Both the position numbers and the translations under genes were made by a program. The notes below the pieces were generated by a model. It saw only the letters and a program-made list of their open reading frames with translations, searched no databases and was not told the DNA's origin. Shown here one piece after another: positions 689-5,770 of a stretch of 5,770 bases of DNA (within the stretch, counting starts at the first letter, position 1; each line of letters opens with the position of its first letter). Source of the stretch: a virus (lineage: Duplodnaviria > Heunggongvirae > Uroviricota > Caudoviricetes); the IMG/VR virus record IMGVR_UViG_2778261673_000003; one strand, 5' to 3'.

Positions 689-906
689 ATCAATAACTCT
701 CAACTGTAAGGGTATTGAAATGTTAACACAAGCTCTCGCTGTAGGGGTATAGCCGAGACCACCGAAGCCCGGAGGTGGTGAAATAAAACCGGGCACAACA
801 CGAAGGCGCATTTCCGATATCCATAAAGAGTCGGTCTTGTCTGTTAAATTTAAATGGTGGGAGTGCGCCTCCGGTTGTAAATAACGACATTGCTGTGTGT
901 AGTCCT

Positions 907-954
907 GGCGGCATCAGTTTTTTTCTTGAAGTTCGGCTGATGTCCGCCCTTTTT
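907..954 (+). terminator. Terminator-like hairpin upstream of kilR: 11-bp GC-rich stem with one bulge, followed by CUUUUU
   Basis: GGCGGCATCAG (907..917) pairs with CTGATGTCCGCC (937..948), with T943 bulged; the loop is 19 nt and contains a T7 run (918..924); CTTTTT follows at 949..954. Read directly from the sequence. The long loop and short U-tract make this non-canonical. Confidence 0.3.
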
Positions 955-1129
955 AAAGTGAATTTTGTGATGCGGTGAATGCGGCTAAGCGCACGTGGCA
1001 CAGTTAAAAGTCATGTTAGTCCTTATTGGTTTGGGTGGGAAAGCCGACTGTAATTGTTAACTGGTTGCAGTCACCTGGAGGCACCAGGCACCGCATCAAC
1101 AAAGTTCATTTGTAAAAATGGAGATAATT

Positions 1130-1351
1130 ATGATTGCACATCACTTCGGAACTGATGAAATACCACGTCAGTGTGTGACTCCTGGCGATTATGTTCTTCA
1201 TGAAGGCCGGACATATATTGCCTCGGCAAACAATATTAAAAAGCGAAAACTATATATTCGTAACCTGACCACAAAAACATGCATTACTGACCGCATGATT
1301 AAAGTCTTCCTCGGTCGTGATGGTTTACCTGTAAAGGCGGAGTCATGGTGA
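1130..1351 (+). CDS. kilR: Killing protein KilR (73 aa), FtsZ / cell-division inhibitor
   Basis: Translation [40 protein letters not shown]...ESW. GGAG at 1120..1123 lies 6 nt before ATG 1130. The track ORF start at 1118 (MEII...) has no ribosome-binding site and is rejected. Stop TGA at 1349..1351. Confidence 0.85.
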
Positions 1352-5431: not shown

Positions 5432-5626
5432 ATGAGATATGACAATGTTAAACCATGTCCATTTTGTGGTTGTCCATCAGTAACGGTGAAAGCCATTTCA
5501 GGATATTACCGAGCGAAGTGTAACGGATGCGAATCCCGAACCGGTTATGGTGGAAGTGAAAAAGAAGCACTCGAAAGATGGAATAAACGAACCACTGGAA
5601 ATAATAATGGAGGTGTTCATGTATAA
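5432..5626 (+). CDS. ralR: Restriction alleviation protein Lar / RalR (64 aa), Cys-rich zinc-ribbon-like; reported as a DNase toxin of a type I toxin-antitoxin pair
   Basis: MRYDNVKPCPFCGCPSVTVKAISGYYRAKCNGCESRTGYGGSEKEALERWNKRTTGNNNGGVHV, with Cys at positions 9, 12, 14, 31 and 34. Start taken at ATG 5432 to give the 64-aa length I recall. The track ORF begins at ATG 5393, which sits inside the upstream hairpin; a further in-frame ATG lies at 5420. The Shine-Dalgarno is weak. Stop TAA at 5624..5626. Confidence 0.75.
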   Translation: MRYDNVKPCPFCGCPSVTVKAISGYYRAKCNGCESRTGYGGSEKEALERWNKRTTGNNNGGVHV

Positions 5627-5770
5627 AATTACCGCCACTATTGAAAAGGAAGGTGGCACTCCTACTAACTGGACAAGATATTCAAAATCTAAAGGAAGAT
5701 GCGAATAAGCAGGTCATTTCTTCCCAAGCTGACTCGCTGATTAAAATTTCGCGGATCTGGGCCGATTTTT
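5611..5770 (-). ncRNA. ralA: Possible location of the RalA antitoxin sRNA (antisense, overlapping the 3' end of ralR); position inferred and partial
   Basis: From my recollection of the literature, RalR is neutralised by a small RNA of about 180 nt with 16 nt of complementarity to ralR mRNA. I cannot identify its promoter or terminator in the sequence, and its 5' end would lie beyond the window edge. Coordinates are a guess. Confidence 0.2.
5619..5708 (+). CDS. Hypothetical 29-aa ORF with a strong Shine-Dalgarno, overlapping the ralR stop; may be spurious or the 5' part of a downstream gene
   Basis: Consensus GGAGG at 5609..5613 lies 5 nt before ATG 5619; the ATG overlaps the ralR stop (ATGTATAA). 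Translation MYKITATIEKEGGTPTNWTRYSKSKGRCE, stop TAA 5706..5708. It is below the size cut-off of the ORF track. A different frame stays open from 5608 to the window end (...QDIQNLKEDANKQVISSQADSLIKISRIWADF) but has no ATG. Confidence 0.25.
   Translation: MYKITATIEKEGGTPTNWTRYSKSKGRCE

Follow-up and report, generated by a model that had tools for sequence, protein, structure and literature searches.

The kilR leader of the Rac prophage: a DicF-type small RNA unit and a conserved pseudoknotted RNA domain

Introduction

KilR, the small cell-division inhibitor of the Rac prophage, is the reason that Escherichia coli K-12 dies without Rho or NusG function, and the 441 bp that precede kilR are unannotated. 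This raises the question of what the spacer contains and whether it takes part in keeping kilR silent. The spacer is treated here as part of a 5,770 nt stretch of DNA, termed the window (IMG/VR record IMGVR_UViG_2778261673_000003), which represents the early-left region of Rac and is 99.7–100% identical to E. coli K-12 and many other strains. It spans positions 689–1129 between the divergent genes sieB and kilR, in agreement with the K-12 annotation, and is the longest non-coding stretch of the window; RefSeq has no feature within it.

An earlier note, made from the sequence alone, had described the spacer as a structured non-coding leader with a terminator-like hairpin on the kilR sense strand, and had proposed that this leader acts as a Rho/NusG-dependent attenuator. 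The structural description stands, but the Rho-dependent site does not belong in the spacer. What was overlooked is that a DicF-type small RNA gene ends in this hairpin, and that the next 140 nt are a conserved pseudoknotted domain. Starting from the observed homology, covarying structures, strand and distribution, positions ∼746–1103 are read here, with a probability of about 0.6, as the equivalent in Rac of the non-coding dicF region found in prophage Qin, i.e. a small RNA, a leaky second barrier to transcription and a leader processed by RNase III.

The hairpin upstream of kilR is homologous to the DicF terminator

The stem pairs GGCGGCATCAG (907–917) with CTGATGTCCGCC (937–948), T943 being bulged, at exactly the coordinates first reported. 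C949 and five T residues (950–954) follow, and a run of seven T residues (918–924) opens the loop, as read directly from the sequence. The hairpin folds at −19.5 kcal/mol (z −2.87; two of 200 shuffles are equally good), and together with its 5′ segment at −21 kcal/mol (z −3.6). Its absence from the results of a simple terminator scan is due only to the loop limit of 8 nt used there.

The identity of the hairpin comes from prophage Qin of the same K-12 genome. When aligned directly with the ydfC–dicB spacer of Qin, window positions ∼906–1105 match the 3′ half of dicF and the whole dicF–dicB spacer at ∼85–90% identity. A permissive Rfam scan gives the same picture. Positions 894–949 match the DicF model (RF00039) over its entire length (1–52 of 52) at 39.1 bits and E 4.9e-6, under the gathering score of 48, and positions 951–1137 match the STnc100 model (RF02076) at full length with 35.5 bits and E 4e-5, under the gathering score of 47. 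Genuine DicF copies score 75.8–76.7 bits. The Qin copy scores 76.7 bits and is likewise followed by a sub-threshold STnc100 match, of 34.4 bits.

Each element belongs to a lambdoid early-left operon and directly precedes a gene for a small inhibitor of cell division, kilR in Rac and dicB in Qin. They share a homologous stem base, GGCGG.AUCAG ... CCGCC, and an identical RNA tail, CCGCCC-UUUUU-AAAGUGAAUUUUGUGAUG, which appears in the alignment as the common DNA sequence CCGCCC-TTTTT-AAAGTGAATTTTGTGATG. The DicF 5′ 14 nt, loop and ribosome-binding region are absent from the homology. The Rac loop is 19 nt long versus 11 nt in DicF, and the Rac stem is more perfect and stronger (−21 kcal/mol, compared with −15.9 kcal/mol for the true DicF hairpin). 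All 11 divergent relatives tested keep a stable hairpin and a U-run despite stem changes, with energies of −10.7 to −25.6 kcal/mol. This retention and the full-length DicF match indicate that the hairpin exceeds chance. Compensating stem variants that stand behind the Rac-type 5′ segment are GGCGGCAUCAG/CUGAUGUCCGCC, GGCGGAUAUCAG/CUGAUAUCCGCC, GGCGGUACCAG/CUGGUUUCCGCC and GGUGG/CCACC. By homology to the DicF terminator, which is proven and has the same tail, the Rac hairpin would be expected to end transcripts. Such a terminator must be leaky, since kilR still kills when Rho fails.

A Rac-type seed in place of that of DicF

In Qin, DicF is a 53 nt RNA with a Rho-independent 3′ end and a 5′ end made by RNase E; a 72 nt form arises by RNase III cleavage of read-through RNA. 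The DicF 5′ end targets xylR and pykA, and the 3′ region targets the ribosome-binding site of ftsZ (PMC5069750). The xylR/pykA pairing segment, UUUCUGGUGACG, is not present in Rac. Where DicF carries UUUCUGGUGACGUUU, Rac has AUUGCUGUGUGUAGUCCU, so that the 5′ 14–18 nt of DicF are exchanged for an unrelated but conserved segment. Also missing from the Rac loop is the ACUCCG that in DicF pairs with the ftsZ ribosome-binding site.

Viral contigs and phages with the same module display two alternative 5′ segments on one terminator scaffold, the DicF-type segment and a Rac-type segment of consensus AUUGCUGUGUGUAGUCYU. The latter is kept ahead of divergent terminator stems in seven relatives (L005, L026, L056, L072, L076, L086 and L115; L numbers designate related sequences). 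Small RNAs that act by base-pairing usually show this combination, a conserved single-stranded segment and a terminator stem that covaries. Judged from the sequence, the Rac unit is a DicF-type paralogue with a conserved seed of its own and not a decayed DicF. It may act in trans, on targets that probably differ from those of DicF given a loop that lacks ACUCCG.

Of 5,426 complete E. coli genomes, 1,836 contain the seed–terminator unit, 1,234 of them at 99% identity or more, and it also occurs in active phages, phage genome records and viral contigs. Among the 30 unit matches listed, none coincides with an annotated feature. Two hybrids (L020, 4760–4812; L077, 4665–4717) combine the Rac-type 5′ segment with a DicF-type loop that carries the anti-Shine–Dalgarno ACUCCG, which suggests modular recombination of seed and scaffold. 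Another group (L007, L009, L022, L024, L055, L078 and L111) has a swapped order, with the pseudoknotted domain first, then UUUAU, then the Rac-type seed and terminator; this layout resembles that of PasD/STnc100 RNAs.

Perhaps the hairpin is a dead relic of DicF, at most a terminator, with a 5′ segment and a downstream domain that have no function in Rac. Rac is a defective prophage, both Rfam scores are sub-threshold, the DicF seed and anti-Shine–Dalgarno loop are gone, and neither expression evidence nor a target has been found for the Rac small RNA. However, a relic is difficult to reconcile with a seed that is conserved across divergent stems, two gene orders, phage records and viral contigs, with stem changes that are compensatory, with near-identity of the unit in more than a thousand genomes, and with an intact downstream domain (139.8 bits, helices and pseudoknot preserved). 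Decay is thus an unlikely explanation, if a serious one.

A pseudoknotted domain between the terminator and kilR

The 140 nt domain, the parts of which are listed in Table 1, folds by itself at −61 kcal/mol. Its family was gathered with the invariant motif CACCNGGAGGCACCNGGCAC, which is present in at least 120 viral contigs; trimming to the closing helix left 91 unique elements. A covariance model was built solely from 19 Rac/Qin-type copies. The window domain scores 139.8 bits (E 6e-28) against this model with all helices and the pseudoknot preserved, and the Rac/Qin-type model also retrieves STnc100-type copies at full length, with E values of 1e-5 to 1e-10.

Covariation support for the domain is strong. 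In 87 distinct sequences, whose alignment for the pair counts is fitted to the model, standard pairs occupy 96.2% of cells versus 38–44% with slid partners, 24 of 31 pairs display compensatory changes on both sides, and the covariation score is 0.446 versus at most 0.069 in controls. The pseudoknot constitutes an independent test because it was left out of the model. Its two strands, which occur as 44 distinct strand pairs, have a mean contiguous complementarity of 7.1 nt, compared with 4.9 nt for shuffled segments and 4.8 nt for a neighbouring segment; complementarity reaches at least 6 nt in 92% of the family versus 26% of shuffles. One pair of P4 is predominantly G–U (57 of the 87 sequences), which shows that the RNA is read on the plus strand, i.e. 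the kilR strand.

Two other proposals concerning the domain were discarded. A leader peptide was considered, as a 15-codon open reading frame at 1013–1060 shares its stop codon with an 11-codon frame in Qin; the frame is not conserved, as L005 and L020 lack it. A second, collapsed copy of the domain at 775–803 was also considered, and the model gives it ∼0 bits.

While the helices covary, the GGUGAAU junction, the P2 loop, the bulged A and the P5 loop AGGCA are invariant. Such a pattern typically points to a specific tertiary fold or to a site at which a protein binds. The main role of the domain could therefore be to bind a protein and in this way control how the kilR mRNA is translated or how stable it is, a view compatible with the Qin-counterpart reading. 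For example, CsrA could bridge the GGA of the P5 hairpin and the GGA of the kilR Shine–Dalgarno sequence ∼40 nt downstream. In enteropathogenic E. coli (EPEC), no RNA is more abundant in CsrA ternary complexes than the distantly related PasD2 (bioRxiv 10.64898/2026.08.12.744399), and kil, dicB and holin genes repeatedly have the domain immediately in front of them. However, PasD2 is not detected by the Rac/Qin-type model and has a truncated P5, the P5 GGA is half buried in the stem, and the Rac/Qin-type P2 lacks the second GGA seen in STnc100-type copies. In addition, the invariance of P5 stems partly from collecting the family by a P5 motif. Protein binding as the main role is rather doubtful, and processing and insulation with RNase III are favoured; binding, with CsrA as a lead, is the main alternative for the role of the domain.

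Relation to STnc100/PasD RNAs and distribution of the domain

On sequence and structural comparison, the domain is classed as a diverged subtype of the STnc100/PasD prophage RNA family. Both types have P1, P2 with the bulged A, P4 and P5 (loop AGGCA) arranged around the GGUGAAU junction, and the same pseudoknot. The STnc100/PasD RNAs differ in being stand-alone RNAs of ∼170–200 nt, with their own promoter or a late-operon position and with a 3′ seed and terminator. In Rac the seed-plus-terminator unit is upstream of the domain, not downstream, the P2 sequence of the Rac/Qin subtype is different, and P1 is longer. P1 has 10–14 bp in copies that follow a DicF-type terminator, and 6–8 bp in promoter-proximal stand-alone copies. 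The Rac/Qin subtype stands after a DicF-type terminator, has no terminator of its own and runs into small genes such as kilR and dicB.

STnc100-type copies are mostly stand-alone, with a promoter 4–6 nt upstream in 13 unique cases, and a spacer of 20–45 nt after the domain leads to a strong terminator. In annotated phages these copies are found between Q and the holin gene. PasD1 and PasD2 of EPEC (EcOnc13) are ∼172 nt long, with a mapped seed that adjoins the 3′ terminator, and a 2026 preprint relates PasD to STnc100. PasD2 is not accepted here as a direct member; the Rac/Qin-type model does not detect it, P5 is truncated and the likeness is partial and by eye only. In five sequences (L017, L105, L033, L051 and L126), STnc100-type units, each with its own terminator, are arrayed in tandem; the arrays hold from two to at least five units, which lie a few hundred bases or less from one another.

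The domain core has matches in 4,406 of the 5,426 complete E. coli genomes, most of which match only window positions ∼944–1110. Lambdoid phages have this stretch in front of kil or dicB, and it is also present in P7 and D6. The P7 copy (L004, 2494–2622; also D6) is of the Rac/Qin type; in these P1-like phages it forms part of the ban operon, with tRNA genes on its upstream side and a terB-like gene on its downstream side, and is not preceded by a DicF-type terminator. In a prophage of E. coli MLI114 (L002, 2455–2930), DicF and the domain are followed not by dicB but by IsrK, C4 antisense RNA and a Rha-family antirepressor-like gene, and the annotation labels part of the domain a 'partial DicB' pseudogene. 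The late leaders of lambda and HK022 are not significant as family members. Lambda has a degenerate domain relic between tR′ and S (L132, 11853–11947; lambda 44852–44946) at a non-significant E value of 0.36, with a P1-like helix GUUGUGCUG/CAGCACAAC, GAAU-UAAGCG, and an interior homologous to the flank of the P7 copy.

Many copies stand 4–6 nt behind strong promoters or inside long phage operons and have a complex conserved fold, and this raises the question of whether the domain is a cis-acting antiterminator, as is put of HK022, that carries transcription through kilR–recET. Put was considered as a functional analogue, since it too is a phage-encoded structured RNA that acts in cis near promoters. 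However, motif and model searches detect no copy in HK022, and put sites are 70 nt two-stem RNAs that differ from the domain in size and fold. Stand-alone copies end in a strong terminator within 20–45 nt and accumulate as ∼170 nt RNAs (PasD), so the domain does not suppress the next terminator. In Rac and Qin, moreover, the domain follows the terminator instead of preceding it, a context incompatible with constitutive antitermination. A put-like identity was rejected, and antitermination is a most improbable role.

Structures and promoters in the upstream half of the spacer

The plus strand of 689–888 folds better than shuffles (z −3.4), an excess that is due to the long helix B; hairpin A is part of the same fold (Table 1). 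Hairpin A is conserved in L056, L072, L084 and L091, and has the variant ACCACCGAGCCUGAAGUGGU in L076 and the L007 group. RNAalifold applied to eight sequences gives helix B 21 pairs, six of them with changes on both sides; for example, G–C is replaced by A–U at columns 14/78 in three sequences. The helix is kept in L005, L026 and L086 while its interior is unrelated. Helix B is followed by an A/U-rich linker and then the seed, an order that makes the helix a candidate for the structure that directs 5′-end processing of the small RNA.

Promoter scans gave nothing convincing inside the spacer on either strand. A published deletion of sieB–ydaU, which leaves kilR without RacR, is viable, and this argues against a strong kilR promoter in the gap. 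On the minus strand there is only a weak promoter-like match, with the −35 at 731 and the −10 at 708. Where sieB is missing, as in L091 and L056, a ydaF-like gene or other DNA abuts window positions ∼735–746. The L091 junction contains NN, and the exact boundary there is uncertain. The sieB-proximal segment (689–745) probably carries the gene's own promoter, and sieB with ∼57 nt upstream (window ∼144–745) looks like an inserted 'moron' that brought its promoter along.

Rho, NusG and the silencing of kilR

Published genetics with and without Rac agree with the earlier note that Rho and NusG silence kilR. Defects in rho or nusG are lethal only when Rac is present, and deletion of intR–kilR permits deletion of nusG. 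The Rho-dependent and strongly NusG-dependent terminator t_rac, however, maps inside racR, ∼1.5 kb upstream of the spacer, and works there in reporter fusions (PMC4150792). The spacer plus strand is G-rich, with a C/G ratio of 0.44–1.07 in 78 nt windows across 689–1129. It is nearly fully base-paired and has no rut-like stretch, that is, none that is C-rich, G-poor and unstructured over ∼70–80 nt. The mapped position of t_rac and the G-rich, structured spacer place the Rho part of the earlier proposal upstream.

A structured leader that is itself a Rho/NusG-dependent attenuator would fit the appearance of kilR toxicity when Rho or NusG is compromised, and the leader does sit between the upstream promoters and kilR. 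Against this, in addition to the location of t_rac and the composition of the spacer, is the hairpin, which by anatomy and by homology to DicF is of the intrinsic, Rho-independent type. Attenuation of this kind is improbable.

Proposed function of the kilR leader

According to the Qin-counterpart reading, transcription would enter the spacer from the immunity side, and in a lysogen would be read-through from the racR promoter, normally halted by Rho and NusG at t_rac. Polymerases that reach 907–954 would partly terminate there, the hairpin serving as a leaky second barrier before kilR. Trimming of the terminated RNA from the 5′ side, into the A/U-rich linker that follows helix B, may yield a DicF-type small RNA of ∼65 nt with its own conserved seed, AUUGCUGUGUGUAGUC, in place of that of DicF. 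Read-through transcripts would fold the 140 nt domain, and RNase III would cut the unusually long closing helix P1, as in Qin. The small RNA would in this way be released from the kilR message, whose 5′ end would be fixed by the same cut.

The proposed role of RNase III comes from Qin, where the end of the 72 nt DicF form falls, by coordinates, within the 5′ arm of the 14-bp P1. This points to P1 of the embedded copies as an RNase III processing stem, and cleavage of P1 in these copies is probable by analogy. A more general comparison can be made with the lambda pL operon, which has the tL terminators and RNase III processing of the N leader. Both are leftward early operons with kil and recombination genes, internal terminators and a double-stranded leader processed by RNase III, the latter in Rac as proposed here. 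However, there is no sequence or structural relation, the domain relic of lambda being non-significant and in the late leader, and lambda has N, whereas there is no N gene in the Rac window.

Several points weigh against this reading. Both Rfam matches, to DicF and to STnc100, are below gathering scores, and a 19 nt loop is long for an efficient terminator. Helix B is represented by only about four lineages, and the invariance of P5 is in part an artefact, as the family was fished with the P5 motif. No seed-complementary site beyond chance was found anywhere in the operon, in which the best seed duplex has −17.6 kcal/mol compared with a mean best of −18.3 kcal/mol for shuffled seeds. The duplex-energy test, which covered the start regions of ftsZ, kilR and sieB, is uninformative, as even the validated DicF–ftsZ pairing is not separable from shuffles (z −0.7 versus −0.9). 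No transcript data for the spacer were found, and the supplement to the 3′-end mapping of Adams 2021 has no kilR or sieB entry. The argument for RNase III relies on product lengths quoted in reviews and not on primary data, P1 of Rac is interrupted by a bulge (10 + 4 bp), and an RNase III site would seem to need a less elaborate tertiary fold than the one conserved here.

Features of the spacer and other elements of the window

Table 1. Features of the sieB–kilR spacer and flanking genes (window coordinates; parts of the domain are listed below it)
Feature	Position	Strand	Basis
sieB	200–688	−	K-12 annotation
sieB-proximal segment	689–745	−	relatives without sieB; weak promoter match
Conserved hairpin region A, ACCACC...GGUGGU or alternatively GCCCGG...CCGGGC	758–794	+	conservation; fold
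Long helix B (795–813 with 861–878), variable interior	795–878	+	RNAalifold; relatives
A/U-rich linker (879–888) and Rac-type 5′ 'seed' AUUGCUGUGUGUAGUCCU (889–906)	879–906	+	conservation in relatives; Qin alignment
Predicted intrinsic-terminator stem-loop (907–917/937–948) and C-UUUUU tail, DicF terminator homologue	907–954	+	Rfam; Qin alignment; folding; stem changes
Pseudoknotted RNA domain, 140 nt, kilR leader	964–1103	+	covariance model; pair counts; folding
P1	964–977 with 1089–1103	+	domain fold
J, AAU	978–980	+	domain fold
P2, bulged A993	981–996	+	domain fold; five pairs, five-nucleotide loop
Pseudoknot, CAGUUAA/UUAACUG	1001–1007 with 1057–1063	+	domain fold
P3, variable	1008–1045	+	domain fold
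P4, loop holds second pseudoknot strand	1046–1052 with 1066–1072	+	domain fold
P5, five pairs, loop AGGCA	1074–1088	+	domain fold
Short linker, kilR Shine–Dalgarno GGAG (1120–1123) and start codon (1130–1132)	1104–1132	+	Qin alignment; annotation; sequence
kilR	1130–1351	+	K-12 annotation

Likeness to the Qin dicB leader stops at the linker 1104–1132. An in-frame ATG at 1118, four codons before the annotated kilR start, would give a product of 77 amino acids (MEIIM...); GGAG is better placed for the annotated start at 1130. In the K-12 annotation kilR is followed by ydaE, racC, recE, recT and ralR. RalA, the antitoxin small RNA of the RalR/RalA toxin–antitoxin pair, is represented by its 3′ part on the minus strand at 5625–5770 (Rfam RF02694, 63.3 bits), the match being cut off at the end of the window. 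A perfect 10-bp inverted repeat at 1877–1901, between racC and recE, has a terminator score on the minus strand only, and its orientation is against antisense transcription.

Significance

Three new elements lie in the gap in front of kilR: a DicF-type small RNA, hitherto unannotated, whose conserved seed differs from that of DicF; an intrinsic terminator, which would serve as a second barrier; and a pseudoknotted domain supported by covariation. The domain joins the leaders of dicB and kilR, a P7 operon, and the STnc100/PasD RNAs that Shiga-toxin and other lambdoid phages encode in their late operons in one structural family. As a tentative, less than even possibility, the 140 nt domain may form a regulatory RNA class of its own in phages, one that recognizes a specific partner (a small ligand, or a protein such as CsrA) and gates expression of the small toxic proteins KilR, DicB and holins; the same fold would be the 5′ body of the abundant PasD/STnc100 RNAs. 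The same proposal would make the Rac-type DicF paralogue, which is present in a third of E. coli genomes, K-12 among them, a separate trans regulator with its own host targets. These findings offer concrete elements for how prophages quiet division inhibitors, and a defined RNA fold for structural and binding work.

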